64,000 bases of DNA. It comes from Candidatus Heimdallarchaeum aukensis. GTDB taxonomy: Archaea > Asgardarchaeota > Heimdallarchaeia > Heimdallarchaeales > Heimdallarchaeaceae. Under the pieces are notes generated by a model that did no database searches, had not been told where the DNA came from, and was given only the letters and a program-made list of their open reading frames with translations. Positions 7,401-39,682 of the stretch are shown here, one piece after another. The DNA is taken from the NCBI GenBank assembly GCA_021513695.1, contig CP084166.1, forward strand, positions 2,816,001 to 2,880,000. The letters are read 5' to 3'. Each line of letters opens with the position of its first letter. The first letter of the stretch is position 1. The translations under genes were made by a program, and so were the position numbers.

Positions 7401-7676
7401 CAAGAAGTAGAAATGGTAGATGATGGAACAGGAATCTACAGCGCTGAAATAGGTCCATTTGCTGCTGATACTGTTGTAGAGTTTTATATTACTGCAACAG
7501 ATATGACAGCTGCACAAAATGAAGCAACAGCAAATAATGGCGGAACAAACTATACAATTGAAATCAAAGGAAAAGGTGTTCTTGGAATTGGATTCAATTT
7601 TGTAGATGTTCTCATTATGGGTCTAGGATTGATCAGCATAGCTTCTCTCCTTACATTAGTAAAGAGAAAGAAATAA
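4485..7676 (+). CDS. Large secreted/cell-surface protein, extremely rich in D/E/Y/W/G quasi-repeats, with an Ig-like domain and a C-terminal TM anchor
   Basis: 1063 aa. N-terminal signal peptide (KKRIFLAIAIIIALFPIYHSG). Repeated 'GYDDGY', 'GYxYGY', 'DGFxDG' and 'WxW' segments. C-terminal beta-rich 'DVTYSPDKPTEEDVITISANVTDDNGV...' Ig-like module. Terminal hydrophobic helix plus KRKK. Confidence 0.6.
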   Translation: MGFELMKKRIFLAIAIIIALFPIYHSGVNTQATTQPVVNNNQITPEEIGVGSKLTYQITQFELGSGFDQLLQDITQDPEAPDIEFGYDGSLVGSEIWFYISLEDQLQFFQYNYSDWEWTKENITQKNVMQVLAGIKLSEDFSAFANLSQLNYPEDAVRQDEAYYYDSWPMSHFETPITSDDFWNPFNEGFIDGFNWGFSDEINEYDWAWFNWPSPDEYYDMYWFARDFGQMWGYDTGREAAMNARNENPGDPWGTAWNDANSASGAFKVGFLEGRDDGYNEGKDDYVNNNRIPDKTFSNPYDATNDITDIGKRRGYDAAWPVYYDAGYLYEGAQEYFNDRLYWELYCDTWDTYPGGYLDGFRDGYYTGVWDGQYDHDYGSYGDNFYPPEGYWDPRDEYQWGYNDGLAEGYQYGYDDGYNQVNDYEQYIWGMESYIWNAHEDGFQVGAQDYINNIGYDNSTFTLPFSSPADMYEEGANFIYEMMYPKAYDDGWKYAFLVDRDGDDLNWLMHEGPFYYMYLPDVILTLQSGSVLPVPTDMTMFKELNISMMDYEIDYDYGENTDLFTEHFTPFSIYAPESDWAELDTWDWAFDPESDMPGVATTIDGNIFEMVFYWEEESGDITFELTIRYDMTTGVLQYSGFSVDFTTEADMYINVAMEYESDTQINLPTPDPTSWSYLIDTFSFTYELPDDAPPEVIDGLNNFKNGGEDAVGNAFMDVDWIQHLGLWNEYNVTFKDPNNPTDASDPVTIMQPTLSPGIQILPDWDLWGGIMQTGDSYLAMSEWIGNAVDMLSDANPTFDAFRNELYYEVSSYHDSTNNIMYLYAGISGGYELRVEMLNGDWEWEETTVSLYFKLVLWTAYDYTTGIFLGAGVEGTIDETFTSNIPTSPQFTLYADIDIRIRADLISSITSITDILTFAEMPEKDTEAPIISDVTYSPDKPTEEDVITISANVTDDNGVCSVILHYKNDTSEWQEVEMVDDGTGIYSAEIGPFAADTVVEFYITATDMTAAQNEATANNGGTNYTIEIKGKGVLGIGFNFVDVLIMGLGLISIASLLTLVKRKK

Positions 7677-19800: not shown

Positions 19801-19970
19801 GAATCACTGACATTAACTTCTGTAGTCATTAGACTTTGCAAAGATAATAATATTCCTTGCATCATGCTTGAATCTTTAGGCAAATGACCTACTGAAGCAA
19901 AGCTTATTCCCGCATCACTACCAACAGAAATCCATAAATCATAGGGATACTCTTTACTCATATTTCTCAC
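16824..19970 (-). CDS. Large orphan protein (1048 aa), no recognisable catalytic motif. It has an N-terminal ~140-aa alpha/beta region followed by a long helical body
   Basis: A long uninterrupted ORF in otherwise well-conserved gene context. Its codon usage is similar to neighbouring genes. No Walker, HxH, or Cys-cluster motifs. Confidence 0.55.
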   Translation of the reverse strand: MRNMSKEYPYDLWISVGSDAGISFASVGHLPKDSSMMQGILLSLQSLMTTEVNVSDSQFMTGQNEFVRFGSFTMPSEETNIVVQYIVRSETANTISIEDESLVQELALSFGKFITLTPNFYDNVESGRTVSPDYVSKSFLNACTIARQKISIKENSSVFINLINDHIEKAATQPDIYPTLLQMKNLEAWLKEEEQSWDKGTINSFKRQLIIQMLSQDILNIISLENPFAILQYKNPRYAVDEISSRIENYLKKHSPKAEDLIDEYLGKKLDKKINSIYSKLSISAIHSAETFIADELSKEIILSIAKKKPLMGLIDFRDVKIYQKLQKTIKEKISPINQGDIICDALTEDAEPLILQGARLFFSQLIGSFKERELPPSVWSVINDFTFAIITEENIKTVKKSKKGGSTLNLKKEFIIGKIQKLTNVGKNLLKELTSIIENAGVGERLQISNIEESVIFAKALERAIISTLVKIVQDQFFNFSLGNIYLYIINSFKKIIPLYIFSTIISNYIQDIRKRELEIGKQLSLTARDLIGGAINTGFLKAYIKSVPVVYKKSFFGKIQLKFDKRAISVYELLLKPGLTVRYDNSVFSLSQAESNPEILTACLIDHKILNSSYKNSIIRKMMSSYPEKIFKFESDIVAKLDNLITLFQKERVSKLRNANLLPEIKESFPSFPEFKNVPENFASKNYHINCYDIWNKNSSRVQKVLQDLLSSFAQLRSNDIHYNEKAKKLYTSAEKELKKIRGKLIKSWEPVNKKIFSDIQHWVKSKIGTIDTHLDYIRKNYENWIDDAFHYKKLQPNQFTPSVEECKTKIDAIIKEVRERELEELPKNFLEIALSILLYRRIPDYVIDDSYNQMIQDAKSAMLTVKRAWTKSKTRKEFETNLYINMRSLGNTLIKLINNYIRLIHDSFVNRDLELSTDRKGFYIDLGTIPKEIFSTKSEVTALYRFDNISVISGGKDWIVKCYIEPEYFKKMTKHLDRLVVISDIIRFVARYKFDEMTEPLIDGIKAATNYLLEQGDKKVIDLIETMKEAIFRLSDYPSISAEEK

Positions 19971-25523: not shown

Positions 25524-26432
25524 TTATACTATATTGTAATAAAGCTCTGTTAACCCTTCTTCTAAACGTATTTTTGGATTAAAATTAAGTTCTTTTTGAG
25601 CTTTAGAGATTGAACAATAGCTGTGCTTTATATCTCCAGTTCTTGGCTCGGTGTAATTTATTGGCAGGTCCTTCTTTGCAATTTTGAGAAGTAAATTTGC
25701 AAGTTCTAGTATCGAAGTTTGCTTTCCTGTACCTATATTATAACTTTCTCCGTTGGATTTGTCGTTTTTTAAGACTAGTTCTATAGCAGAAACAACGTCT
25801 TGGACATGTATAAAATCTCGTGTTTGTATTCCATCGCCTTCAATAATTGGTGAAGAATTAAGGTGAATTCGATGTATAAATTTACTAATAACTCCAGAAT
25901 AAGGATCATCTATTTTTTGTAGTTTGCTGTAAAGGTTAAATAGGACAAGAGATGTAGTAGGAAGATTATATAAAGAATGATATAGCATCGTGTAACGTTC
26001 TCCAACAAGTTTAGATAAACCGTAGGGAGAAAGAGGTTCACGTGGATGTTCTTCAGTAATTGGAAGAAATTTTGGTACTCCAAAAGTAGCTGCAGAACTT
26101 AAATAAACGAACTTTTTGATATCTCGTTTTCTGGCAAATTCAAGCAAATTTAGTGTTCCTTCAATATTTGTCTTAGCATCAAATAAAGGCTCTTTCGTGG
26201 ACTTTTTAACTGAAATTTGAGCAGCTGTGTGAATAATGAAATCAACTTCAGGAAGAGAAGAATAAATAGAAGCATCTAATATGTCTCCTTTAATAAATAA
26301 ACAGTCATTAGGAGGTGCAATTTTAGCGTTAGATAAATTATCTAGAAGAACAAACTCATAATCATTTTTTAGATATTTGTAGATATGCGCACCAACCTGA
26401 CCTAGACCTCCAGTCACGAGAATTTTATCCAT
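25524..26432 (-). CDS. NAD-dependent epimerase/dehydratase (extended SDR; UDP-sugar 4-epimerase-like)
   Basis: 'VTGGLGQVGAH' (GxxGxxG) and 'YGLSK' (YxxxK). 302 aa. Confidence 0.8.
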   Translation of the reverse strand: MDKILVTGGLGQVGAHIYKYLKNDYEFVLLDNLSNAKIAPPNDCLFIKGDILDASIYSSLPEVDFIIHTAAQISVKKSTKEPLFDAKTNIEGTLNLLEFARKRDIKKFVYLSSAATFGVPKFLPITEEHPREPLSPYGLSKLVGERYTMLYHSLYNLPTTSLVLFNLYSKLQKIDDPYSGVISKFIHRIHLNSSPIIEGDGIQTRDFIHVQDVVSAIELVLKNDKSNGESYNIGTGKQTSILELANLLLKIAKKDLPINYTEPRTGDIKHSYCSISKAQKELNFNPKIRLEEGLTELYYNIV

Positions 26433-26515
26433 AAATATGGATATTAGAACGTGTAATTAAATTTTTTTATAATGATTCATTTCTTCTTTCTTGAGTAACC
26501 TTTATAATCTTAAAT

Positions 26516-27211
26516 TTGTTGACTAAGCTTATGTCAAAACTTGGTCAATCTATGGTATTAACAAAAATTTTTCAAATCACAGGAGGAATCATTTTAATCT
26601 TGATATCAATTGCTGGTATGATCGATACTGAAAAAACTTTACAAATTATGCGTTGGGTTCTATCTTCTATTCTGATTATATTTTCAATTTCAATAATACT
26701 ATATACTTTCTTGGCAATAGAGAAAACTGAAAAAACAAAGCGCATTCTCTTTATAGTAACTAGTGTTATTGTTCTTGTTCTAGGTATACTTCCTATGATC
26801 TTTGGTTCTGTAGCTAGTCAAATGATAACAATAATTTTAATGGTTATAATGTTTGTAACTGGATGTTTACGTATTTCAATAGGCTTCAAATCATCTACGC
26901 TTCCCAGATGGAAAACTAACATTTACATATTGGTAGGCTCTGTTGCTGCAACACTTTCGTCTGTAGTACTAATCTTTTATTCAAGATCAGTCACTTCTTC
27001 TGTTGTCTTCTTTTTTGCATTTCTCCTTACTTTAACAGGAGGGACTCTTATTCTAGATGGTATAACTAAACCCAAAGAAGGTCATTATAAAATTAGAGAA
27101 GAGAAAGAAGAGCAAAAAGGTGAAGAAAAATTAGAAACTAAAACCGAAGAAAAATTAGAAGAGCCCACTGAAACTGAAACAGAAGATATCAAAGAAACAA
27201 ATGACGAGTAA
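26516..27211 (+). CDS. Integral membrane protein (about 6 TM) with an acidic E/K/T-rich C-terminal tail. Hypothetical
   Basis: Hydrophobic helices throughout. The tail 'EEKEEQKGEEKLETKTEEKLEEPTETETEDIKETNDE' is low-complexity. Confidence 0.5.
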   Translation: MLTKLMSKLGQSMVLTKIFQITGGIILILISIAGMIDTEKTLQIMRWVLSSILIIFSISIILYTFLAIEKTEKTKRILFIVTSVIVLVLGILPMIFGSVASQMITIILMVIMFVTGCLRISIGFKSSTLPRWKTNIYILVGSVAATLSSVVLIFYSRSVTSSVVFFFAFLLTLTGGTLILDGITKPKEGHYKIREEKEEQKGEEKLETKTEEKLEEPTETETEDIKETNDE

Positions 27212-27372
27212 TTTTTACTCTTTTTTCTCCTTTTTTACTTTTTTTGTTATTATAAGAACATGCCAATAGGAAACTCGTTAAACTTATTTACTCCAATTAA
27301 AGCATGGGTTGGGCATTATAGCAAAAATATTAAAAAGGTATGACAAATTGGATTGATGTAGAGAAATAATGG

Positions 27373-28200
27373 GTGGATAAAAAGGTGAAAAAACATTACG
27401 TCCTTGCTTTAGTTTTTATAATTAGTTTGTCATTTAGTTTAACCCCAAAACTAAACATTAGTGCTCAAATAGAAGAGGAAGAAATAGACTGGGACTATTC
27501 AGGGTTGATTAAGTTCCAAGCAGATAGAATAAAATTTGATGAGGATTCTCCAATTAAGTTGAGATACTACTATCATCTTTTCTATAATGAAGAAACAGAG
27601 ACAGTAGAGTCATTAGTTGTTCTTTATGGACTAAGGCCCATTATAAGTGCTCCTTATTATTCAAAATTTTTCAGTGAAGGTGCAACCTATACCCGCTTTA
27701 GCTACTGGTTAAACGATTCCTATGACATTGACTGGATAGATATAACTTATGAATCAGTAACCGATGAGACTTCAGAAAATTATGCTCCTGAATATTTAAC
27801 AGTTTACAATGCTATTGCAAATAATTCCTTATTCAAGACACGATCAGATGTTTGGGAAAGAACAGGAGTTATTAAATTTCCAATTCATTTTGCTAACTTA
27901 TCTAGTGTTATAGGAGAAACAATCGGGTTGTGGGAAATCATCCAAAGAGATGGTACAATTATCCGTGGACAATTTACAACTTATGGCAAAACTAATCCTA
28001 TTTTTGAAGATCCAAAATCAAGCTATACATGGCCTGATTATAATGTGACAGTTGCACAAGACATAGAAAGATCTTCTTTGCCGAGAGAACATTCAGTTAG
28101 AGTTCCTTACTCTCTCACTTCAACAGTATTAGCAAGTTTTGCATTAACTTTATTCCTAAATGTTCTAAAAAGAAGTAAAAAAAAGGAGATGAAAAATTAA
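27373..28200 (+). CDS. Secreted protein with a C-terminal TM anchor. Paralogous at its N-terminus to the next gene
   Basis: Signal peptide 'KKHYVLALVFIISLSFSL'. Mature N-terminus 'EEEEIDWDYSGLIKF' (compare the next gene's 'DESEWDFSGVIRV'). C-terminal hydrophobic helix plus 'KRSKKKEMKN'. Its stop directly abuts the next ATG (taaatg). Confidence 0.5.
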   Translation: MDKKVKKHYVLALVFIISLSFSLTPKLNISAQIEEEEIDWDYSGLIKFQADRIKFDEDSPIKLRYYYHLFYNEETETVESLVVLYGLRPIISAPYYSKFFSEGATYTRFSYWLNDSYDIDWIDITYESVTDETSENYAPEYLTVYNAIANNSLFKTRSDVWERTGVIKFPIHFANLSSVIGETIGLWEIIQRDGTIIRGQFTTYGKTNPIFEDPKSSYTWPDYNVTVAQDIERSSLPREHSVRVPYSLTSTVLASFALTLFLNVLKRSKKKEMKN

Positions 28201-29550
28201 ATGAAATATAAACAAGTTTTTTTTGTATTTACAACTCTAATCTTATTCTCTTCATTAATTGCTAACATCAATCTCATTACTTATGCACAAGATGACGAAT
28301 CAGAGTGGGATTTTTCCGGAGTAATTAGGGTAGATAGTGAATTAAGAAGACCTCCAATTTTTCAAGCTGAAGAACTAGATCAAACTAAACCAACAATTTT
28401 TCCTTTAAATGATGTAAGCTTAGAACTTAATACAACTGAAAACAGTCTTCAATGGTTTGTATCTGATTTGTATCCAGGAGATTTCCCTGATAACTATTCA
28501 ATTTATATGAATGATAGTCTTATTCAAAATGGGAAATGGGAATCAAATCAATATATAACTGTAAATTTGGACGATTTAGAAAATGGGAATTATCGTTATT
28601 CTATAATTATTCAAGATATTAAAGGGAACAAAGCTCAAGATGAAGTTTATGTAAGTGTAGTAAATGAAACTGCTCCATACATAAGACAAGTAGCAGATAT
28701 AGAGTTCTTTGAGGGGAGTAGCATTGGACCAATTGTTTGGCAAGTAACTGATAAAAATCTATCAAGTTATGTAATTCAACGAAATGGAGGAACAGTAGAC
28801 TCGAATACTTGGTCAGAAAATACTAGTGAAAGTGATTGGAACCCAGAGAGCCCAACTATTTCTTACGCTATATCTGCATTAGAGATAGGAGAACATAATA
28901 TTACTCTAATTGTTGAAGATATTTATGGACAGCAAAGTGTTGACACAGTTATTGTAACAGTAAAGGATCCGTCAACTAGAATAAATTATGAAAATTATGA
29001 ACCTCCTAACATAGAAATAGCAGTACTAGGTTTGGACACAAATGATGATGATTCAATGGATACTTACTATGGATTTTATGGAATAATCGAAGATCCAGGT
29101 GTGGAAGGGTACTTTACTAAAATCCTTGAACCATACCTTGGTGCAACTTGGAGAATGAGAATTCCTCAAGATTCCCCAGCTACTTGGGAAGTAATATACT
29201 ATCCTAATCCTATATATGATAAAATAAGGCCTTATTTAGCTTATGAAGCACCAGTATATTTTGTTAACTTAACAGTTGCCACTGGCGTAAATTTAGAATA
29301 TGAAATAGATCTCGGAAGAAACACAACATATGGAAACTTAACAACATATGGTGCTGACAATCCATTGTTCCCAGAAGTACCAGAGTACTCAGGATATAAT
29401 TTTGCCATTCCATACTACACAGGAACAAAAGAAAATGAAGTTACAGTAGAAACTGATTTCTTTAGCAGCCTATCATCAATGATAAGTATTGTATCTCTTT
29501 CATTTTCAGTTTTAGTCCTTTATAATAAAACGAAAAGAAAAATGAAATAA
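28201..29550 (+). CDS. Secreted protein with two Ig-like repeats and a C-terminal TM anchor
   Basis: Signal peptide. Two internally similar ~90-aa beta-rich modules ('LQWFVSDLYPGD...NGNYRYSIIIQD' and 'IVWQVTDKNL...GEHNITLIVED'). C-terminal helix plus 'KTKRKMK'. Confidence 0.5.
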   Translation: MKYKQVFFVFTTLILFSSLIANINLITYAQDDESEWDFSGVIRVDSELRRPPIFQAEELDQTKPTIFPLNDVSLELNTTENSLQWFVSDLYPGDFPDNYSIYMNDSLIQNGKWESNQYITVNLDDLENGNYRYSIIIQDIKGNKAQDEVYVSVVNETAPYIRQVADIEFFEGSSIGPIVWQVTDKNLSSYVIQRNGGTVDSNTWSENTSESDWNPESPTISYAISALEIGEHNITLIVEDIYGQQSVDTVIVTVKDPSTRINYENYEPPNIEIAVLGLDTNDDDSMDTYYGFYGIIEDPGVEGYFTKILEPYLGATWRMRIPQDSPATWEVIYYPNPIYDKIRPYLAYEAPVYFVNLTVATGVNLEYEIDLGRNTTYGNLTTYGADNPLFPEVPEYSGYNFAIPYYTGTKENEVTVETDFFSSLSSMISIVSLSFSVLVLYNKTKRKMK

Positions 29551-29620
29551 CAAAAATTCTTTTTCTTTTTATTTTTATTTCAAAGCATTTTTAAGTTCTA
29601 TTAGTTTACAACTAATTAAA

Positions 29621-30286
29621 ATGACTTTATATTCCTCCACAATAGATAGTTTGATTGTTTACATTATTGAAGGAATTGTATTATCATTGTTCGTCTGTAC
29701 TTTTTTTATTAAAAAAAGAAAAATTAGAAAAATAGTAAATGGTGCCGGAGGGCTATTGTTATTCATTCTATTTGTTTTTGGAATATTGTATGATCTTAAA
29801 GATTTTTTAGTCTTATTTTCACTTTCTACTATCATAGTATTTCTTCTAAAAATGATGATTGAAGATAAAAGGGTGAAATACATATGGATTACACTAGCTT
29901 CCTTTGTTTTAATTGCTTTCAGTGTAAAAACACATCTTGAAATAATGTTTTTGTTAAGTTTATGTTTAAGTGTTATCCTGTTTTTATCATTTACTGCAGT
30001 TTCATACTATGAAACAAGTAAAAGAAAAAAAATGGAGAAAGAAGAATTTGAAATTTTTTCTTTAATTTTGGGGGCAGTTTTTTCTCTAACTCTTTGCGCT
30101 CCTCTTGTTTTTTTGATTGTGACTTTTGATTATTCTCAGCTAAATATCGACCTAATGAAGCAAAACAATAATCTAGGAATAGAAGGAAGTCTGGCTATAC
30201 TCTTTGGGATATTCTTGGTGGTTTTTGTTTTCTTATTTATCTATGATTTTGTAGAAGGTAGGAGAGAAAAAGAATGGTATCAGTAG
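29621..30286 (+). CDS. Orphan integral membrane protein (about 6 TM), first of four translationally coupled membrane genes
   Basis: 221 aa, hydrophobic throughout. It overlaps the next ORF by 13 bp. Confidence 0.5.
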   Translation: MTLYSSTIDSLIVYIIEGIVLSLFVCTFFIKKRKIRKIVNGAGGLLLFILFVFGILYDLKDFLVLFSLSTIIVFLLKMMIEDKRVKYIWITLASFVLIAFSVKTHLEIMFLLSLCLSVILFLSFTAVSYYETSKRKKMEKEEFEIFSLILGAVFSLTLCAPLVFLIVTFDYSQLNIDLMKQNNNLGIEGSLAILFGIFLVVFVFLFIYDFVEGRREKEWYQ

Positions 30287-30540
30287 AAACTTATCTTGTT
30301 TTATGTTTAGTAATAATATTCATAGGACTAATTGCTTTTAAATATCATCTGACAAATATCAAATTTATTTACGGAATAACAGTAATTTATATTGGAGCGA
30401 TTTGCTTATCTTTTCTTTTTAATAGTGCCCAAGATGAAATTATCTTTGTCTATACTGGAATATTTTCAATCTTAACTATAATTTTGTTAGCAATAAAATC
30501 ACCTGTATTTGAAGCAAAAATAAAGGAGAATGAACAATGA
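30274..30540 (+). CDS. Small membrane protein (3 TM)
   Basis: 88 aa. 'atga' start/stop overlap with the following gene. Confidence 0.4.
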   Translation: MVSVETYLVLCLVIIFIGLIAFKYHLTNIKFIYGITVIYIGAICLSFLFNSAQDEIIFVYTGIFSILTIILLAIKSPVFEAKIKENEQ

Positions 30541-30995
30541 GTGAAAAAGAAGTTGAAGACATAAAAGAAGTTGAAGACATAAAAGAAGTTGAAGACATAA
30601 AAGAAGTTGAGGAAAGAGAAAAACTTCCAAAAAAAGAAAAAGAAGTTAAAAAAGAGAGAAAAAGTAAATCTTTTCTTCCTAAGATTAAAGAAGTAATCAT
30701 TAAGTCCTCAAATTACTTTTTTGTAGCAATATTATATCTAAAAGTTATCAAACCTGCATTTTATGGCTTAAAAATAGGTGTAAATTTTCTTTTAGAATTA
30801 GGAAAAAATTTCTTTGTAATAGTTTCAAAGTTTTTTTACAAGTTGTATATGGTTATTAAAAAGAACATGGAAGAATTATCATTTTTTGTTCATAGATTTG
30901 AGCGTGCACCGCTTAATCTTCAAATATGGGTTACAAGTGTATTTGTTTTTCTATTAGTTTCAATTTGGATAGCTTTCGGGGGTAGAGTGGGATGA
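30537..30995 (+). CDS. Membrane protein with an N-terminal acidic (EVEDIK)n repeat and a K/E-rich linker, then 2 TM
   Basis: 152 aa. The 18-bp tandem repeat encodes EVEDIK x3.6. 'atga' overlap with the next gene. Confidence 0.45.
   Translation: MSEKEVEDIKEVEDIKEVEDIKEVEEREKLPKKEKEVKKERKSKSFLPKIKEVIIKSSNYFFVAILYLKVIKPAFYGLKIGVNFLLELGKNFFVIVSKFFYKLYMVIKKNMEELSFFVHRFERAPLNLQIWVTSVFVFLLVSIWIAFGGRVG
30549..30613 (+). repeat. Tandem 18-bp repeat gaagttgaagacataaaa x3.6 (in-frame, coding)
   Basis: Exact copies at 30549-30566, 30567-30584 and 30585-30602, then a diverged partial copy 'gaagttgagga'. Confidence 0.85.
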
Positions 30996-32473
30996 TTTTC
31001 TGGGTAATAACAGGAATATATCTTTTTGGAATTGCAGCTATTTTTATATTGGAAAGATCATCACAATTTATAACAAAACTGTTTCCACTACTAAAAGGAA
31101 AAACGAGGATAGTTTTTAACTATATCAGTGTTTTAATTACAATTTGTGCTTATATTGTATATTTGTATACTGTCCATCCATTTAGTCAGAGTACAAAGAT
31201 ATTAGAAAAATTTGCTTTTTCACCATTTTCAAGCATATTTTTGGCATTATCTACTCTATTAATATCAGTCACAGGATTTTTCCTCTTGTCAGATGTAGAT
31301 GAATTTAGCAATAGGAGTAAAGTGGGTTATAGTTCTCTACTCTTTACACAATATTCTGCATTTATTATGTTTTCATCCGTCTCTTGGGTTTTTATTTATC
31401 TAGGATTGCTAGGTATAATTGTGGGCATAACATTTATTTTGCGAAACATATATCTAAAAAAAGAAATTGAAGTAACAAAAGAACTTCATTCTATGTTTGT
31501 TTTTGATATATTTAGCTTGGTTTTTCTTTTTTTGGGGATTTTATTCTACAATTTAGTTTTTAACTCTTTTATAATTCAAATTAAACCAAGAAATGATTTT
31601 TGGGCACTAGAATTATTAAGTTTCATATTCATATTTTGTTCAAGTCTAATTCTCCTTGAGATTCCACCCTTTCATTTCAGAAGCTTTTCTGAAGTTAATA
31701 AGAAATTTAAGACCCCAAAAATAGTAAATTTGTTAAAAAAACTTGTAGGTGTTTTTATGATTCTAAATTTATCACGCCCAATAAGCGTAAATTCTAACTA
31801 TAAGCAATTTTACTTCATAATTTTCTTGACAATTGGTGGAATAGTTTCTTTATGGGGCGTAGTAGGAGCAATAAATAAATTAAATATTAATGAATTACTT
31901 GTGTATATTGACTTTTATTATATTGGTACACTGCTGTTATTTTTGTCAAATAACTTTTCATCAGATGCAACAATTTCTACAAGCATTGAAGGGTATGCCT
32001 TTATTTTATTTTTAACCATCTTTTATTTCATGATGCAAATAGTACAAACAAGTTTAACGAGTTTGATGTCAAGCAAATATTCTTTCAACTCTTTGGATGA
32101 CTTATTAAAAGGAGAAAAACTTGAGAAAATAGAAGTATTCCCTTTTGCTATTTTACAGTTTGTAGAGATAGCTTTTCCACTAGCTTTATCCTATACATAC
32201 ATCTTCTATCTGAATTTCAAGGATATAAGTACATTATACTTCATAATTCTTACATCAATCATTTCTGTAAATTTCTTCTTTGGAATACAAAGTAGTTTTA
32301 GAGTGATATATTACTCATTGAAGAGAACAAGTTTACCACTTGGTTATAAGCGAATTGAACCAAATTTACACATATCAAGCTTCATTTCTATGCTAATTCT
32401 TGTATTTAATGCAGTTTTTATAAAGGAAATAGTGATTGTGTGCCAAAGAGCAGTTTTTCTATTTCCATTTTAG
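30992..32473 (+). CDS. Polytopic orphan membrane protein (about 12 TM)
   Basis: 493 aa, almost entirely hydrophobic helices. No transporter signature that I recognise. Confidence 0.5.
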   Translation: MIFWVITGIYLFGIAAIFILERSSQFITKLFPLLKGKTRIVFNYISVLITICAYIVYLYTVHPFSQSTKILEKFAFSPFSSIFLALSTLLISVTGFFLLSDVDEFSNRSKVGYSSLLFTQYSAFIMFSSVSWVFIYLGLLGIIVGITFILRNIYLKKEIEVTKELHSMFVFDIFSLVFLFLGILFYNLVFNSFIIQIKPRNDFWALELLSFIFIFCSSLILLEIPPFHFRSFSEVNKKFKTPKIVNLLKKLVGVFMILNLSRPISVNSNYKQFYFIIFLTIGGIVSLWGVVGAINKLNINELLVYIDFYYIGTLLLFLSNNFSSDATISTSIEGYAFILFLTIFYFMMQIVQTSLTSLMSSKYSFNSLDDLLKGEKLEKIEVFPFAILQFVEIAFPLALSYTYIFYLNFKDISTLYFIILTSIISVNFFFGIQSSFRVIYYSLKRTSLPLGYKRIEPNLHISSFISMLILVFNAVFIKEIVIVCQRAVFLFPF

Positions 32474-32525
32474 TTATTTTTGACAATAGGCAAGTTTTTT
32501 TAACTACTAAAAAAAGATTTCTACA

Positions 32526-33509
32526 ATGTTTTCTTCCAAGACAAAATTAGATGTAGAGAAAGATATCGAAGAAATAAATAATGAACTTATCAAATTAAAA
32601 GATAACGCTCCTTATGACGAAGAAATCGTAAACTTAATTAATGAGATAATTGAAACAGGAGGAAAACGAATAAGACCATTAATTACTTTATTATGTTACG
32701 AAATGATCTCAAACAAGAAAAGAGATAATACTAGTTTTGCTGCTGCTTGTGCAATAGAAATAATTCATAATGCAAGTTTACTAATTGATGACATCTTTGA
32801 TAAAGATATTTTTAGAAGAAAGAAAAAGTCTTTTTACCTAAAATTCTCGACATTTTCAGCAATATCTATGTCTTACTCTTTGAGTAGTTTAGCATTCGGT
32901 TTGGCATTAAAAACAAAATTGTTAGAAATCGTAGAAGAATTAACAAAAGCAACCCAAAATTTAGCTATCTCTCTGTTTCTTGAACAAAAATTCAGAAATG
33001 CAAATACAAAGATGACACAAGAAGAAGCTTTGTTGCTTATAGATAGAAAAACAACTACACTATTTGAAGCAGCATCAGTAATAGGCGTGTTGTTAAACCA
33101 AGCTACACAAGAAGATAGAGAAAAGATGAAAGATTTTGGTAAATATTTTGGTAGAGCTTTTCAACTGCGAGATGACTTACTTTCAATTACTGCTACGGAA
33201 GAAGAAATAGGAAAGACAAGTGTTATAACAGATATTAAAAATAGAATACAAACATATATTGTTCTTGTAGCAATGGAACAAGCAGCTGAAGAAGACAAAA
33301 AGAAACTAGAAGAATATTATATAGAGAAAAAAGAACTTGATGTAGAAAAAATAAGGACTTTAATAAAAAGGTCGGGAGCAATAAAAACAGTCGCAAAACT
33401 AGTAAATGAGTATATAGAAAAAGCAATGTCAATATTAAAAAGCTACCCTGAATCTACTGCAAGAAATAAATTGATAGAAATAACCAGATTTTTAAGTCTA
33501 AATTTATAA
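32526..33509 (+). CDS. Polyprenyl diphosphate synthase (geranylgeranyl diphosphate synthase-like, trans-IPPS)
   Basis: FARM 'LLIDDIFDKD' and SARM 'FQLRDDLLS' aspartate-rich motifs. 327 aa. Confidence 0.8.
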   Translation: MFSSKTKLDVEKDIEEINNELIKLKDNAPYDEEIVNLINEIIETGGKRIRPLITLLCYEMISNKKRDNTSFAAACAIEIIHNASLLIDDIFDKDIFRRKKKSFYLKFSTFSAISMSYSLSSLAFGLALKTKLLEIVEELTKATQNLAISLFLEQKFRNANTKMTQEEALLLIDRKTTTLFEAASVIGVLLNQATQEDREKMKDFGKYFGRAFQLRDDLLSITATEEEIGKTSVITDIKNRIQTYIVLVAMEQAAEEDKKKLEEYYIEKKELDVEKIRTLIKRSGAIKTVAKLVNEYIEKAMSILKSYPESTARNKLIEITRFLSLNL

Positions 33510-33608
33510 AAAGAGAAATTTAAAACTAATGATTATTTGAAAAATCTCTTCAAGATTATTAAAAAAAGAGAAAAAAGTAATTTTTAATTAATATTTGTTG
33601 ATTTTTCG

Positions 33609-34685
33609 TTAAATAATTCTAGAACCGTTTACAAACTCGTTAAACCAAATATGGGCGTTGTGCCTGTCTGTATAAACAGGAGGAGCTTTAAAACCATAAG
33701 CACAGACGGAAGAAAGAGGACCTCCAACAGCTCGGTTAATAGCTATTTTCACACCTCGAATGACATCAAATAGGGTCGCAGCTCCATTAGGTCCATCTAA
33801 TGTTTCTAAACGAATGTCAATCTTAATAGGTGTTCCAATAAATGTCTCTCCATAGATCCAAAAATGACCAATACGACGATTACCAAGAAACTCAAGATAG
33901 TCAGAAGTCCCAGAAGCAATATTGATCTGACCTTGAAAAGCGTTTTTTATTGTATTTTCTTTTACTGTACGCTTGTAAGCTTTACGGTCGTCATCTAAAG
34001 TGTTTAGAGTTTCTAATCCTCCACTAACATCTAGTTGATAAGTATCTTTAATCCTGATTCCTTGTTCTGTCAAAATTTCTAAAATACCCTTATGGAGAAC
34101 AGTGCCACCATATAGGCTTTGAAGATCGTCTCCAACTAATGGAATATTAGCTTGACGGAATTTACGAGCCCAAAGAGGGTCACTAGCAATGAAAGTGGGA
34201 GTACAGTTAACAAAAGCAATCTCTGCATCTAAAGCAGCTTGAGCATAAAATTCTACAGCTTTTTCTGCACCAGTAGGTAAAGCGCAAATTAACATCTCTG
34301 CTCCAGATTCTCTCAAACGTTGCACAACATCTACCTCAGGGGAGTCAGAAACCTCAATAACATCAGCTAAAGTACCAGTAATGCCATCTAAAACAGGACC
34401 TTTTTCAACAATTACACCAGAAGGTGAAAGTTCAAGAAACTTAGGGGTGCTGTTAATCGATGCAAAAATTGCCTCAGAAAGATCTTTACCTACTTTAGTT
34501 TTATCTACATCGAAAGCACCTACAATATGAATAGTATTCACTCCATAGTTAGCCATTGAGGGATGTAGCAAGTTATTACAAGCATCTTTGTTCTTACGTA
34601 AATATTCAATCCCTTGAACTAAACCAGATGCAATGTTACCAACACCAGCAATAGCGACATTAATACGTTTTTCCATAATAATCAC
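33609..34685 (-). CDS. myo-Inositol-1-phosphate synthase family protein, divergent paralog
   Basis: 358 aa. 'VAIAGVGNIASGLVQGIEY', 'GAFDVDKTKVGKD', 'LVGDDLQS', 'GPLSSVCAYGFKAPP' parallel the adjacent ino1-like gene at roughly 40% identity by eye. Confidence 0.7.
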   Translation of the reverse strand: MIIMEKRINVAIAGVGNIASGLVQGIEYLRKNKDACNNLLHPSMANYGVNTIHIVGAFDVDKTKVGKDLSEAIFASINSTPKFLELSPSGVIVEKGPVLDGITGTLADVIEVSDSPEVDVVQRLRESGAEMLICALPTGAEKAVEFYAQAALDAEIAFVNCTPTFIASDPLWARKFRQANIPLVGDDLQSLYGGTVLHKGILEILTEQGIRIKDTYQLDVSGGLETLNTLDDDRKAYKRTVKENTIKNAFQGQINIASGTSDYLEFLGNRRIGHFWIYGETFIGTPIKIDIRLETLDGPNGAATLFDVIRGVKIAINRAVGGPLSSVCAYGFKAPPVYTDRHNAHIWFNEFVNGSRII

Positions 34686-34690
34686 CTTAA

Positions 34691-35773
34691 CTAATTAGAA
34701 ACCTCCCCTTTGATAAATTTCTCAACAAGATCATGTGCAATAGGGTCAGGAATTTGCTTGGGAGGATGTTTGAAGAAGTAACTAGAAACACTCTCTAATT
34801 TTCCACCTATCCCACGATCTTTAGCAATCTTAAGAGCTCGAACAACATCAATCATAACTCCTGCAGAATTAGGAGAATCTTGAACACTAAGTTTAAGTTG
34901 AACAGTTATTGGTTGTTCACCGAAATTCTTTCCTTTAAGCCACAAATAACAAACTTTCTCATCTTCTAGGAAAGGAACATAATCACTTGGACCAATACGA
35001 GTAGGAACTTCATAAGGAATCATACTAGTAACAGCTTCAGTTTTAGAGACACGTTTTGTTTGTAGTCGATACTCTTTTTTCATATTTTCAAAATCAGTGT
35101 TTCCTCCAACGTTCAATTGAAAAGTTTCATCGATCTTTATTCCTCGCTCATGAGCAAGACGGACAAGCATACGATGAAGAATAGTTGCACCTAATTGAGA
35201 TTTTATGTCATCTCCCGCTACTGGTACGCCTTTTTCTGCAAATTTTGCAGCCCATTCTTCATTACTTGCTATAAAAGCAGGAATACCATTAGCAAAGGCA
35301 ACGTTTGCATCAAGTGCTGCTTGAGCATATATTTTTGTAGCTTCTTCAGAACCAACAGGTAAGAAATTTATTAATACATCTGTTTTAGTTTCTTTCAAAA
35401 CTTTAGCTACATCTACAGGTTTAATTTCGTTCTCATCATAACAATAGAATGATTCTCTCATGTGTGGGGCTACACCATCAGAAATGGGGCCAGGCAATAC
35501 AGTTACTCCCTTGTGTGGTACGTCAGCAAACTTATTGCACACGTTGGGTGGTTGCCAAATTGCTTCAGAAATATCTTTCCCTATTTTCATTTTATTAACT
35601 TCGAACGCTGCTACCACTTCTACATCTCTAATGTGATAAGGTCCGAACTTTACGTGCATGATTCCAGGAACAAAATCATCTTCTTTGGCATTTTTGTAAT
35701 ATTCTAATCCTTGAATTAGCGCTGAAGCGCAATTTCCTAGTCCAGCAATCGCAATTCTTACTTTTTCTGTCAT
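34691..35773 (-). CDS. ino1: myo-Inositol-1-phosphate synthase (bacterial/archaeal Ino1 type)
   Basis: Collinear with M. tuberculosis Ino1 as I recall it: 'IAIAGLGNCASALIQGLEYY', 'PGIMHVKFGPYHIRDV', 'GDDIKSQLGATILHR', 'LNVGGNTDF', 'SPNSAGVMIDVVRALKIAKDRGIGG'. Confidence 0.85.
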   Translation of the reverse strand: MTEKVRIAIAGLGNCASALIQGLEYYKNAKEDDFVPGIMHVKFGPYHIRDVEVVAAFEVNKMKIGKDISEAIWQPPNVCNKFADVPHKGVTVLPGPISDGVAPHMRESFYCYDENEIKPVDVAKVLKETKTDVLINFLPVGSEEATKIYAQAALDANVAFANGIPAFIASNEEWAAKFAEKGVPVAGDDIKSQLGATILHRMLVRLAHERGIKIDETFQLNVGGNTDFENMKKEYRLQTKRVSKTEAVTSMIPYEVPTRIGPSDYVPFLEDEKVCYLWLKGKNFGEQPITVQLKLSVQDSPNSAGVMIDVVRALKIAKDRGIGGKLESVSSYFFKHPPKQIPDPIAHDLVEKFIKGEVSN

Positions 35774-36052: not shown

Positions 36053-37852
36053 ATGGCTTGGTTAGAACAAAAAAGAAAGAGAAAACATTCATTTAAGGAA
36101 ATAATGAGTCTTTTGCTTCCTTATTTATCAAGAAAGAAGCTAGGGCTAATATTTGTTAGTGTGATCTCTTTTCTATCTGCAATAGTAGGTCTTGTTACCC
36201 CCCAGTTAATAAAGTACATCATCGATATAGCCATTCCAAGTAATAACGTTAAGCTTGTTTATTTATTAGGTGGAGCGGTTCTCTTAACAGCAATTGTTAC
36301 AGGTTTGTTAGTCTATGCTACACGTTTTTATTCTGCATTATACGCTCAACAAATAGTTATGGAATTGAGAAACGATATTTATGAAACTTTACAGATGTTA
36401 CATCTGGATTACTATAACGAAGAAAACACTGGTCAAATAATGACTAGAGTTACAACGGATTTAAATGCAATTCAAAGTTTAGTTTCTTTTACTCTTCGCC
36501 TACTTATGAATGGCGTAATTTTCTTCATTGGTGCTTATGCAGCTATGATTTCCATGAATGCAAAACTTGGAGGAATATTGTTAGGACTCTTTCCAGGTTT
36601 CTTATGGTTAGTTTATTGGTTTAGTAAAAAAGTTCGTCCTATTTTTTATCAATCTCGAACAAAATTTGGTGAAGTAACATCCATTTTACAAGAAAATGTC
36701 ACAGGAGCTCATGTAGTTAGAGGTTTTGCTCAAGAAGAGAGTGAAATTGAGAAATTTGATAAAGCTAATGCAGAATATAGAGATTTAATAGTTAAAGCTC
36801 GAATCTACCGTTCATTTTATTTCTCCTTTATGCTCTTTCTAATAGGTTTAGGAGCTTCAATTGTTTTACTAGTTGGTGGATTAGCAGTTATGAGAGGAGA
36901 GATGGGAAGAGGAGAATTTATAGCATTTATATCCTATTTAGCAATGCTATCAGGTCCAACAAGACAACTAACTTGGTTGGTAGGAATAATTCAGCGAGCT
37001 TTGGCAAGTGGAGATAGAATAATTGAATTGTTATCTGGTAAGAAAGAAGTACAAGAAGATCCTAATGCCATTGATCCACCTGTTTTTAAAGGTAAAATAG
37101 AATATGAAAACGTTTCTTTTGGTTATGATGAGGTTGTGGTGCTAAAGAATATTAATGTAGTTATTCCACCAGGTCAAAAAGTCTTGATACTAGGTGGAAC
37201 AGGCTCAGGAAAAACTAGTTTTGTAAACCTTATTCCTCGTTTCTATGACCCAGTTACTGGAGTAGTAAAAATAGATGATATTGATATTAAACGCTATAAA
37301 TTGAAGAAAATGAGAAAGCAAATAGGTTTTGTTCTCCAAGAAACCTTTCTATTTAATGCGACAATAAAAGAAAATATAGCTTTTGGGAACCCTGAAGCAA
37401 CAGAAGAAGAAATAATAGCAGCAGCTAAAACAGCAAAAATACACGATTTCATTTCAGAATTGCCTGATGGTTATCAAACAAGAATAGGTGATAGAGGAAT
37501 TACTTTAAGTGGAGGGCAAAAACAAAGATTGTCTATTGCTAGAACTCTTTTAACTAATCCATCTATTCTAATATTTGATGATTCTACAGCTTCTGTCGAT
37601 GCAGAAACAGAGTATCACATTCAAGAAGCTTTAGATATATTAAGCAGAGGTAGAACAACAATTATCATCTCACAGAGGATTTCTTCAGTGAAATACGCTG
37701 ATAGAATACTAGTTTTTGATCAAGGAGAAATAATACAAGATGGAACACATGAAGAACTTATTAAACAAGAAGGAATTTACAAAGAAATATATGAAACACT
37801 TGCAGAAAGCTACGTTATTCCTTCAAAACTTTTAGCAGAAGGGGGAGATTAA
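36053..37852 (+). CDS. ABC exporter, fused permease-ATPase (type I exporter, heterodimer half 1)
   Basis: 6 TM N-terminal domain. Walker A 'GGTGSGKTS', signature 'LSGGQKQRLSIAR', Walker B 'LIFDDSTASVD'. Confidence 0.85.
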   Translation: MAWLEQKRKRKHSFKEIMSLLLPYLSRKKLGLIFVSVISFLSAIVGLVTPQLIKYIIDIAIPSNNVKLVYLLGGAVLLTAIVTGLLVYATRFYSALYAQQIVMELRNDIYETLQMLHLDYYNEENTGQIMTRVTTDLNAIQSLVSFTLRLLMNGVIFFIGAYAAMISMNAKLGGILLGLFPGFLWLVYWFSKKVRPIFYQSRTKFGEVTSILQENVTGAHVVRGFAQEESEIEKFDKANAEYRDLIVKARIYRSFYFSFMLFLIGLGASIVLLVGGLAVMRGEMGRGEFIAFISYLAMLSGPTRQLTWLVGIIQRALASGDRIIELLSGKKEVQEDPNAIDPPVFKGKIEYENVSFGYDEVVVLKNINVVIPPGQKVLILGGTGSGKTSFVNLIPRFYDPVTGVVKIDDIDIKRYKLKKMRKQIGFVLQETFLFNATIKENIAFGNPEATEEEIIAAAKTAKIHDFISELPDGYQTRIGDRGITLSGGQKQRLSIARTLLTNPSILIFDDSTASVDAETEYHIQEALDILSRGRTTIIISQRISSVKYADRILVFDQGEIIQDGTHEELIKQEGIYKEIYETLAESYVIPSKLLAEGGD

Positions 37853-39682
37853 ATGGGTTGGGCAGTAAGAAGACTAGCACGAGAAGAAGAAGAAAGAAAG
37901 AAAATATATTCTGACAGAGAACTTTTTGTTAAGGTAATCAAAATTTTTGGCTACTATAAAGCAGAAACATTTTCAGTTATTGCTATCATAATCACAGTTT
38001 CTGTCTTTTCTTCTCTAATCCCTATAATCATGCAAAGAGCGATAGATTCATTCATCTATGTAGGAATATCTACAGAAAGAACTAAAGGCATTATAATTAT
38101 GGCTTCTATCTACCTTACTTTCATATTGATGAATGCAGCTTTAATATTTATTCGAACTGTATTTTTCTCAAAGCTAGGTCAAAAAATAATCTATAGACTA
38201 CGAACTGAATTATTTAGAAAACTTCAGTATCTATCCTTCAGTTATTTTACAGAAACAGAATCAGGAAGAACAATCTCTAAAGTTACAAATGATGTAGATG
38301 CACTAGGAGAACTGTTGACTACAGGATTAATAGATATCTTTGCTGATTTTTTCAGTTTAATTTGGATAGTAGCGATAATGTTTAGCTACGACATAAAAAT
38401 GACTTTACTCACTTTTACTGTTATACCTATTCTTATTTTTGTAATATTAATGTTCCAACGTAAAGTGAGAGTAGCATATAGAAAAACTAGAGTGGCTATA
38501 GCCAAAGTTACAGCTAATCTACAAGAAAGTATAAGTGGAGTAAAAGTGACAAAGGCATTATCAAGAGAAGAGGAAAATATATCCACATTTAAGAGCATTA
38601 ACCAAGAAAATTATAAGGCAAATGTAGAAGCAGCAGGAGTTTCAGCATTATTTATGCCACTTATACAATTTATCTCAGCTATAGGAACAACCATAATACT
38701 CATCTTTGGTGGAATTTCAATCATTAAATTTGGGACAATAACCATCGGAGAACTTTATGCATTCTTAGAATATTCAAATAGGTTCTTTATGCCAATAATC
38801 AGTTTATTCACCTTCTATACAGTAATTCAATCAGGATTTGCAGCAGCAGAAAGAATATTCGAAGTTTTGGATGAAGAATATACTGTAAAAAACAGTGAAA
38901 ATCCAATTATCCCAGAAAAAATTGAAGGAAGAATAGAGTTTAGAAATGTTCACTTTTCTTATACTCCTGATGTTCCAATACTTAAAAACATAAACTTGGT
39001 AATTGAAAAAGGAGAAAGTGTAGCTCTTGTAGGTGAAACAGGAGCAGGAAAAACAACAATGACTAAACTCCTTTCACGTTATTATGATGTAATTGAAGGA
39101 GAGTTATTAATCGATGGAATAAATATTAAAGATATAGAACTCTCTTTCTTAAGAAAAAATATAGCTGTTGTTCCTCAAGATGTCTTTCTTTTCTCAGGAA
39201 CAATAATGGATAATTTGAAGTATGGAAAGAAAGAAGCAACAGATGAAGAAGTGTATAGAATTTGTAAAACTTTAAGTTTACATAAATACATTCTCAATCT
39301 TCCAGAAGGTTATGAAACAGATGTAAAAGAAGGAGGATCAAGGTTATCTCTAGGACAAAGACAGTTAATCTCACTAGCTCGAGCTTTAATCGCTGATCCT
39401 AAAATACTTATTTTAGATGAATGTAGTAGTTCAGTTGATCCCATTACTGAAGCGCTAATCCAAAAAGGAATAGACATCTTACTTAGAAATAGAACCTCGA
39501 TAATCATAGCTCACAGATTAAGTACAATAAAAAATGCTTCAAAGATAGTGGTTCTTGATCATGGAGAGATAATAGAACAAGGAACACATCAAGAATTACT
39601 TAAGAAAATGGGTAAATATTACTCTCTCTATGAAACACAACTAACAGCGAATACAATAGTAACTGAGGAAAGCAAGAAGTAG
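37853..39682 (+). CDS. ABC exporter, fused permease-ATPase (heterodimer half 2)
   Basis: Walker A 'GETGAGKTT', degenerate signature 'LSLGQRQLISLARAL', Walker B 'LILDECSSSVD'. Its start abuts the preceding stop. Confidence 0.85.
   Translation: MGWAVRRLAREEEERKKIYSDRELFVKVIKIFGYYKAETFSVIAIIITVSVFSSLIPIIMQRAIDSFIYVGISTERTKGIIIMASIYLTFILMNAALIFIRTVFFSKLGQKIIYRLRTELFRKLQYLSFSYFTETESGRTISKVTNDVDALGELLTTGLIDIFADFFSLIWIVAIMFSYDIKMTLLTFTVIPILIFVILMFQRKVRVAYRKTRVAIAKVTANLQESISGVKVTKALSREEENISTFKSINQENYKANVEAAGVSALFMPLIQFISAIGTTIILIFGGISIIKFGTITIGELYAFLEYSNRFFMPIISLFTFYTVIQSGFAAAERIFEVLDEEYTVKNSENPIIPEKIEGRIEFRNVHFSYTPDVPILKNINLVIEKGESVALVGETGAGKTTMTKLLSRYYDVIEGELLIDGINIKDIELSFLRKNIAVVPQDVFLFSGTIMDNLKYGKKEATDEEVYRICKTLSLHKYILNLPEGYETDVKEGGSRLSLGQRQLISLARALIADPKILILDECSSSVDPITEALIQKGIDILLRNRTSIIIAHRLSTIKNASKIVVLDHGEIIEQGTHQELLKKMGKYYSLYETQLTANTIVTEESKK

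Follow-up and report, generated by a model that had tools for sequence, protein, structure and literature searches.

A highly divergent relative of the complex I/Mrp antiporter module encoded beside anchored surface proteins in Candidatus Heimdallarchaeum aukensis

Introduction

What could be the role of six adjacent genes of an Asgard archaeon that have received no functional assignment? Heimdallarchaeia are close relatives of eukaryotes, and interest in their energy-conserving complexes and envelopes comes from what these may tell about eukaryogenesis. In this study we focus on a locus of Candidatus Heimdallarchaeum aukensis, located in a 64,000-nucleotide (nt) stretch of contig CP084166.1 (GCA_021513695.1, positions 2,816,001 to 2,880,000 of the forward strand), hereafter the window. 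It comprises six co-oriented genes, G1 to G6, all with products annotated as 'hypothetical protein' in GenBank. An earlier note on this DNA had described them as a coupled cluster of two anchored secreted proteins and four membrane proteins without recognisable function, and indeed no function has been assigned to any of them. All six open reading frames (ORFs) were found where that note had placed them; their features, with sizes in amino acids (aa) and numbers of transmembrane helices (TM), are as follows, positions being those of the window:

27373-28200, + strand: G1, 275 aa, likely true start GTG 27385 (271 aa); K9W45_12580
28201-29550, + strand: G2, 449 aa, G1 paralogue
29621-30286, + strand: G3, 221 aa, polytopic with 6-7 TM; NuoJ position and size range; K9W45_12590
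30274-30540, + strand: G4, 88 aa, 3 TM; NuoK/MrpC position and size range
30537-30995, + strand: G5, 152 aa, putative NuoL-type relic with a charged repeat tail, an amphipathic (lateral-helix-like) stretch and a terminal TM
30992-32473, + strand: G6, 493 aa, apparently full-length NuoN/ND2/MrpD-type antiporter-like subunit

The analysis reported here indicates that the machinery of unknown type proposed in the earlier note derives, for its G3-G6 part, from the membrane module common to complex I and Mrp antiporters. The system as such appears to be undescribed, and no published description of it turned up in literature searches.

Relationship of G6 to NuoN

G6 alone gave no Pfam match even at E 10, and PDB searches with the single sequence or a narrow profile found nothing. 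A word-indexed search retrieved only two close homologues. The relationship with NuoN became visible only once distant relatives had been retrieved from 1.84 billion cluster representatives by exhaustive searching with HMMER; 12 full-length ones were found, which makes this a very small family. The profile of this family matches 59 PF00361 proteins (NuoN, NuoM, MrpD, HyfB), down to E 2.7e-26, and 3 of the 14 family members match Pfam PF00361 directly (best E 1.3e-11). Searched against the PDB, the same profile retrieved NdhB (1.3e-20), E. coli NuoN (5.5e-17), MbhH (4.7e-15) and MrpD (7.9e-11), with plant ND2 also among the top matches and MrpA at 5e-3. Moreover, global hhalign alignment of G6 with the NuoN profile spans 465 of 493 columns with a probability of 99.94% and E 8e-36, at 14% identity; the probability with the NuoL profile is only 45%.

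The family alignment displays two motifs, G-x-PPFH and L-x-KLL-x-Y-I-S-L-x3-G. Within the PPFHF motif P225, P226 and H228 are invariant or nearly so across the family, Y305 and G312 are conserved as well, and the TM12 proline has its counterpart in P396. G6 keeps in this way the discontinuous-helix motifs of PF00361 (TM7 'PFH' and the TM12 Pro), together with the TM8-9 motif 'KLL.YISL..G'. Judged from these profiles and motifs, G6 reads as a complete NuoN-type antiporter-like subunit of the PF00361 superfamily. We regard the homology of G5 and G6 to NuoL- and NuoN-type subunits, respectively, as very probable. The earlier note had seen no transporter relation in the membrane proteins, and had named homology to a known transporter family as the result that would speak against its proposal. 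G6, with its NuoN/MrpD antiporter-like relationship to PF00361, displays such homology, and G5 adds to it a NuoL-like tail.

G5 as a candidate remnant of a NuoL-type subunit

The gene located between G4 and G6 comes in two sizes, 120-152 aa in five lineages and 631-659 aa in four others. The long form, found in sister lineages, has the size of NuoL (Nqo12) and aligns with it globally (hhalign probability 97.7%, E 1.2e-11, 573 columns); the NuoN profile gives 98% and E 9.5e-13. A profile of the short form matches the last 55 residues of the 650-aa protein of lineage L008 (hhalign 94.9%, E 4.4e-8; BLASTP E 4.6e-4), and both forms carry the motif F-x-R-x-L-E-x3-L-x2-Q followed by a terminal TM. 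Window G5 corresponds only to the last ~55-110 residues of the long form. In NuoL the core is followed by TM15, the lateral helix (HL) and TM16; window G5 differs in that it keeps the tail alone and adds a repeat-rich charged N-terminal tail. Its residues 41-125, ~80 residues before the matched tail, form an amphipathic stretch with a hydrophobic moment of 0.35-0.5, similar to that of the HL region in E. coli NuoL, and a lateral-helix conformation is predicted from this amphipathicity only. Comparison of the G5 tail with the canonical NuoL C-terminus was not significant (E 0.43), and no significant similarity to MbhI was found either. Window G5 is, in our reading, probably all that is left of a NuoL-type subunit: the tail has survived, and the 14-TM core has been deleted in the Heimdallarchaeum lineage. 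A precedent is found in the membrane-bound hydrogenase (MBH), where helix HL sits on a separate small subunit, MbhI (PMC8165549).

The charged N-terminal tail is encoded in part by a repeat:

30545-30610, + strand: perfect 18-nt tandem repeat of 3.7 copies, read as (EVEDIK)n at the start of G5

This region differs in the related strains L002 and L003, with strain-dependent copy numbers, as a variable-number-like repeat in a cytoplasmic tail would. In lineage L013, a partial gene preceding G6, in the position of G5, scores above the Pfam PF00361 cut-off (29.5 vs 21.5 bits), in line with the proposed origin of G5. It may be M-like, so that some lineages may have three antiporter-like genes. This gene (L013, 2-1159) ends without the LE...Q tail motif, on a short contig.

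G3, G4 and the order of the module

The order G3-G4-G5-G6 is syntenic in all of the eight lineages that were examined (window, L003, L007, L008, L009, L011, L019 and L020), even at 20-34% protein identity; the synteny asked for in the earlier note is there, and the module is found only in Heimdallarchaeia. Gene order and sizes agree with canonical nuoJ-K-L-(M)-N. In the canonical operons that were fetched, J measures 166-210 aa, K (overlapping J) 102-103 aa, L 636-656 aa and N 471-476 aa, with M between the last two; in the family described here G3 measures 213-226 aa, G4 86-118 aa, the long G5 631-659 aa and G6 492-499 aa. Hydropathy agrees with the earlier TM counts for G3 (~6) and G4 (3), but the two TM attributed to G5 reduce to one clear C-terminal TM plus the amphipathic stretch, and for G6, credited with ~12, at least 11 peaks are seen.

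The 13-nt overlap between G3 and G4 (ATGGTNNNNNTAR) is present in 8/8 lineages. It dual-codes the conserved C-terminus of G3 (WYQ*) and the N-terminus of G4 (MVS). Together with a purine-rich stretch upstream, it keeps its geometry in the eight lineages though the proteins are only 15-33% identical.

Ion-translocation residues

The central-axis residues of E. coli NuoN were mapped onto the 14 members of the G6 family via the profile alignment:

E133 equivalent, TM5: hydrophobic or Ser in 14/14
K217 equivalent, TM7: L, F, Q, S or V in 14/14
K247 equivalent, TM8: K or R in 14/14; K250 in window G6
K395 equivalent, TM12: Lys in 2/14 only; lost in window G6

Of the charged residues of PF00361, G6 thus retains the TM8 position alone. 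In a 2026 mutational study of E. coli NuoN, K247 and K395 were essential, K217 was partly dispensable and E133 was dispensable (PMC13073174). In the long G5 the TM5 Asp is kept in 3/3 and the TM7 Lys in 2/3 proteins, and the TM12 Lys is not kept. From this pattern we consider it reasonably probable that canonical pumping has been lost in the G3-G6 module.

Alternatively, G3-G6 could still be a working Mrp-like secondary cation/proton antiporter serving ion or pH homeostasis with unconventional charged residues. The place of G6 in the antiporter-like superfamily, its TM8 K/R and the TM5 Asp and TM7 Lys of the long G5 in sister lineages are in line with such a role, as are the purifying selection on all genes and the lack of an attached redox module, as in Mrp. 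However, G6 no longer has the TM5 Glu, the TM7 Lys or the TM12 Lys, although the equivalent of the last, K395, is essential in E. coli NuoN (PMC13073174), and the NuoL-like core is deleted in the window lineage. Furthermore, the module has two small subunits where Mrp has four or five, the two intramembrane Glu of NuoK have no conserved counterpart in G4, and MrpD is a weaker PDB match than NuoN/ND2. We therefore judge a working antiporter improbable.

G1 and G2

G1 and G2, encoded just upstream of the module, are paralogues: they share 29% identity over ~109 C-terminal residues (BLASTP E 2e-5), with a second match over the N-terminus including WD[YF]SG (E 1e-3). The WD[YF]SG core of the mature N-terminal motif described in the earlier note is common to both, but the residues before it are not, G2 having E-S-E-W instead of E-x-[ID]-W. 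The common C-terminal architecture holds, as both proteins end in a TM and a basic tail. Both also start with a hydrophobic signal-like segment. G1, with its signal-like N-terminus, WDYSG motif, beta-rich ectodomain containing several N-x-S/T sequons, C-terminal TM and basic tail, is predicted to be a type-I anchored surface protein, and G1 and G2 are probably glycosylated at the surface.

G1 has no Pfam, NCBIfam or PDB match. Residues ~60-270 of G2 hold a PKD/Ig-like insert that remains sub-threshold (K319L-like_PKD 23.8 bits vs a cut-off of 27; Big_13 20.8), and Fab-chain matches of G2 in the PDB were not significant; the orthologues in L008 and L020 are without this insert. A homologue search with a concatenated G1, G3, G4 and G5 profile recovered only relatives of G1. 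Sorting of the archaeosortase/PGF-CTERM type was considered for both proteins and rejected, their C-termini (...VRVPYSLTSTVLASFALTLFLNVLKRSKKKEMKN and ...DFFSSLSSMISIVSLSFSVLVLYNKTKRKMK) being without PGF (or PEF/VPXXXP) signature; no NCBIfam match was found either.

Transcription units, selection and divergence

The four junctions given in the earlier note are correct: TAAATG at 28198-28203, the 13-nt overlap at 30274-30286, and ATGA at 30537 and 30992. The internal starts are preceded by GGAG-like ribosome-binding sites, and the start of G1 in the GenBank annotation and in the orthologues is the GTG at 27385. The fifth junction, between G2 and G3, was unlisted; there the genes lie 70 nt apart (29551-29620), and the spacer holds T-tracts together with a conserved TATA-like motif. 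Elements that could delimit transcription units are:

27320-27338, + strand: candidate archaeal B recognition element/TATA-like promoter of G1-G2 (agcaaaaatattaaaaagg), read from the sequence
29551-29580, + strand: T-tract right after the G2 stop, resembling an archaeal intrinsic terminator (Tandem Repeats Finder row 29560-29580), putative function
29581-29597, + strand: conserved promoter-like motif CAAAGCATTTTTAAGTT, ~30 nt 5' of G3
32482-32504, + strand: promoter-like motif ACAATA..TTTTTTTA of the polyprenyl synthase, 3' boundary of G3-G6, putative function

The window, L002, L003 and L007 have the CAAAGCATTTTTAAGTT motif in identical form, though G3 of L007 is only 29% identical, and ACAATA..TTTTTTTA-like motifs occur in the gap between G6 and the synthase in the window, L007, L009, L011 and L008. 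We infer three transcription units, G1-G2, G3-G6 and the polyprenyl synthase. Of the six-gene coupled cluster first described, the conserved and coupled neighbourhood stands, but it would consist of two operons with the conserved terminator/promoter-like gap between them.

The six genes are real; comparison with two related strains gives ratios of nonsynonymous to synonymous substitution rates (dN/dS) of 0.05-0.43, indicating purifying selection on all of them: 0.09 for G1, 0.05-0.2 for G3, G4 and G6, and 0.31-0.43 for G5. On this ground the pseudogene reading was rejected. That the membrane genes might be decaying remnants without function, as the loss of catalytic residues, the truncated NuoL-like gene and the very fast divergence could suggest, is barely credible against these ratios, the reading frames intact in 8/8 lineages and the conservation of the overlap geometry and of the promoter motif. 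When the six proteins were scanned against Pfam, NCBIfam, PADLOC and PHROGs, neither G1 nor any of G3-G6 had a significant match, and readings of the locus as a defence system or as phage-derived were rejected, the PADLOC and PHROGs scans being without significant match. An Rfam scan of 26000-34000 found no RNA family.

Protein identities to the window in L007, L009 and L011 differ between parts of the region:

G3-G6: 20-34%
G1/G2: 47-57%
neighbouring enzymes: 51-88%

At a shorter distance, the window was compared with the near-identical strain L002 (jgi 3300033141 Ga0366833_1001731). Mismatches amount to 0-1% in the flanks and to 4-10% from the spacer 5' of G1 (27120), which also carries an indel, to the stop codon of G6 (~32470). 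The synonymous rate (dS) is 0.13-0.24 inside this island vs 0.005 in the synthase. The six genes behave as one unit of allelic divergence. The locus looks like the product of allelic replacement or of balanced polymorphism of all six genes, and the island may also stem from a single recombination import.

A proposed membrane scaffold

The best overall explanation, to which we give slightly better than even confidence, is that G3-G6 constitute a fast-evolving derivative of the antiporter module, now a non-pumping scaffold tied to the envelope via G1 and G2. The module would be a Heimdallarchaeia-specific, very fast-evolving offshoot of the antiporter-type membrane module common to complex I, membrane-bound hydrogenases and Mrp. 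Its four proteins are predicted to form a small complex in the membrane, built on the plan of the distal arm of complex I and without redox input. G6 would provide the antiporter-fold core, and the amphipathic helix and terminal TM of G5 could clamp it to the G3/G4 layer, by analogy with HL on the separate MbhI of MBH. Such an assembly would no longer be a canonical redox-driven or secondary proton pump. It could act as a scaffold in the membrane, perhaps retaining a residual ion path via the conserved TM8 K/R (250), and work with the C-terminally anchored G1 and G2 encoded just upstream. We put forward the scaffold role only tentatively; the partnership with G1 and G2 seems to us just short of evenly balanced. 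In a bolder version, which we consider unlikely, a respiratory-type module of the archaea closest to eukaryotes has been exapted into a non-bioenergetic envelope machine, the non-pumping scaffold holding, positioning or conformationally driving rapidly diversifying surface glycoproteins G1 and G2 for cell-cell or cell-virus interaction, and divergent alleles of the whole locus are maintained in the population.

Several observations weigh against the favoured explanation. G3 and G4 are taken as candidate NuoJ/NuoK-position partners from only their position, size, topology and overlapping junction. Their PDB profile searches gave nothing significant, and they have no Pfam match, including to NuoJ PF00499 (Oxidored_q3), NuoK PF00420 (Oxidored_q2) and the Mrp small-subunit families. 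The hhalign probabilities against NuoJ and NuoK profiles are 1.2% and 0.3%, and alignments with E. coli and small NuoJ/K/H profiles, with each other and with G6 were all non-significant. Structure predictions of G1 and G3 were both of low confidence: the AlphaFold2 model of G1, from 3 sequences, has a pLDDT of 40 and is unusable, and that of G3 is a weak one with 7 helices. As to pumping, the residue-loss call depends on a profile alignment at 14% identity, and E133A is tolerated in E. coli NuoN (PMC13073174). Some ion conduction through G6 may persist, as the essential TM8 position keeps K/R, and the ancestral module may have been active, given the TM5 Asp and TM7 Lys of the long G5.

The link with G1 and G2 is likewise mixed. 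The association of the two groups described in the earlier note is found, with orthologues of the pair directly upstream and co-oriented, in four lineages (window group, L007, L008 and L020). In a fifth, L009, the pair lies 5 kb off on the other strand, and at the L011 and L019 loci no pair was found within 7-10 kb. Many other neighbours are also syntenic across the family, which makes adjacency alone weak evidence of shared function. G1-G2 and G3-G6 could thus be unrelated systems, neighbours through the broad gene-order conservation of Heimdallarchaeaceae; the terminator/promoter-like gap between the operons and the slower evolution of G1/G2 relative to G3-G6 point the same way. We nevertheless consider this unlikely, although it has to be taken seriously, as in four independent lineages the pair immediately precedes G3-G6 in the same orientation although other neighbours have been rearranged. 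Moreover, the divergence island runs from the spacer upstream of G1 to the stop of G6, covering both operons and nothing else. Because the island spans exactly G1-G6, the two operons may be held to belong together; this is the best evidence that we have for it.

Finally, G3-G6 could be a separately encoded distal membrane-arm extension of the single complex-I-like MBH [NiFe]-hydrogenase of Heimdallarchaeum, supplying its missing antiporter-like subunits. Heimdallarchaeial complex-I-like hydrogenases have been reported to lack antiporter-like subunits (10.1101/2024.07.04.601786), and in Heimdallarchaeum species a single MBH complex is encoded, at another place in the genome (PMC8813620); the L-N order and the lateral-helix tail would suit docking on an existing arm. 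On the other hand, hydrogenase or Nuo genes never adjoin G3-G6 in the eight lineages, pumping residues are lost in G6, and subunits of its own in the J/K positions would be redundant with those of the hydrogenase. Furthermore, with the identities given above, G3-G6 evolve far faster than core bioenergetic genes usually do. An MBH extension is accordingly quite improbable.

If the scaffold explanation is true, the locus is a clear case of a complex I/Mrp antiporter module that persists without a redox partner or most proton-transfer residues, one subunit having been cut down to its lateral-helix tail and yet remaining under purifying selection. G3-G6 would then be a natural experiment on the antiporter fold and the lateral helix after the loss of pumping, bearing on the long-running question whether the lateral helix of NuoL is mainly a structural clamp, and would show how far antiporter-like subunits can be repurposed. 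Four 'hypothetical proteins' could also be taken off the list of unexplained Asgard genes, and concrete partners would be supplied for them.

Comparison with known systems

The solved structures closest to G6 are NdhB, ND2 and NuoN, which it resembles end to end, keeping 'PFH', 'KLL.YISL..G', the TM12 Pro and the TM8 K/R. It differs from NuoN by an identity of 14%, by the lost TM5 Glu, TM7 Lys and TM12 Lys, and by a locus outside any nuo or hydrogenase operon. Indeed, unlike complex I or group 4 [NiFe]-hydrogenase operons, G3-G6 loci have no adjoining NuoH or peripheral-arm genes: none (NuoB, C, D, I) was found within ~10 kb in the eight lineages, nor among the window ORFs scanned.

Like Mrp (CPA3), G3-G6 stand alone without redox arm and combine antiporter-like with small polytopic subunits. 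However, Mrp has MrpA together with MrpB, C, E, F and G, whereas G3-G6 have two small subunits and no MrpA C-terminal domain; MrpA measures ~800 aa, with a C-terminal NuoJ-like domain, against 631-659 aa for the long G5, which is of NuoL length. G6 is closest to the NuoN type and not to the MrpD type, and it has lost the essential acidic and lysine residues. A further difference is the linkage of G3-G6 to secreted, anchored proteins.

The DAB (DabA/DabB) and MpsAB-type systems offer a conceptual precedent, as in them a lone PF00361 subunit has been recruited, outside complex I and Mrp, to a non-respiratory task with a partner that is not a redox module. The ion-translocating residues are retained in DabB. 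In contrast to DAB, G3-G6 have no DabA-like or carbonic-anhydrase-like partner, the putative partners here being extracellular type-I membrane proteins.

Genomic neighbourhood

A polyprenyl diphosphate synthase gene follows G6 after 42-61 nt in 7/8 lineages, the exception being L019, where it does not adjoin G6. This raises the possibility that G3-G6 act in membrane-lipid or polyprenyl metabolism, for example in handling or flipping a polyprenyl-linked compound, and that the link with G1/G2 is incidental. Such a role would fit the conservation, in the neighbourhood, of two inositol-1-phosphate synthases, an ABC exporter pair and HMG-CoA reductase. However, the synthase has its own conserved promoter-like motif, appears truncated in L003-L006 and lies outside the divergence island; moreover, we know of no antiporter-like subunit that transports lipid. 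We hold a lipid role to be very unlikely.

The window synthase (32526-33509) displays IHNASLLIDD before its first DDxxD, with Ala and not an aromatic residue at position -5, as in 5/5 lineages checked; under the usual chain-length rule, this is a hint that the product exceeds C20. The synthase reaches none of the NCBIfam equivalog cut-offs. In H. endolithica-like strains the synthase is called at only 118 aa (L003 9975-10594, also L005 and L006). In L003 a Cas12f1-like/TnpB fragment comes next, and the nucleotide homology with the window does not extend beyond window position 32866. The shortening could reflect the insertion of a mobile element into the synthase gene or an assembly break.

Further downstream, 33609-35773 (- strand) holds two tandem paralogous myo-inositol-1-phosphate synthase genes, conserved beside the cluster in all lineages. 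With the ABC exporter pair (36053-39682), HMG-CoA reductase and an NAD-dependent epimerase nearby, the region is a neighbourhood of lipid and envelope biosynthesis. Just upstream of G1, 26516-27211 encodes a DUF308-repeat membrane protein whose C-terminal tail is acidic and rich in Glu and Lys. Its gene, located outside the divergence island, is conserved in L002 and L003 and does not stand beside the cluster in L009, L011, L019 and L020. Elsewhere in the window, two ORFs of 1048 and 1063 aa (16824-19970, - strand, and 4485-7676, + strand) have no Pfam match; L009 and L010 also have the 1048-aa protein conserved in the vicinity of the cluster.

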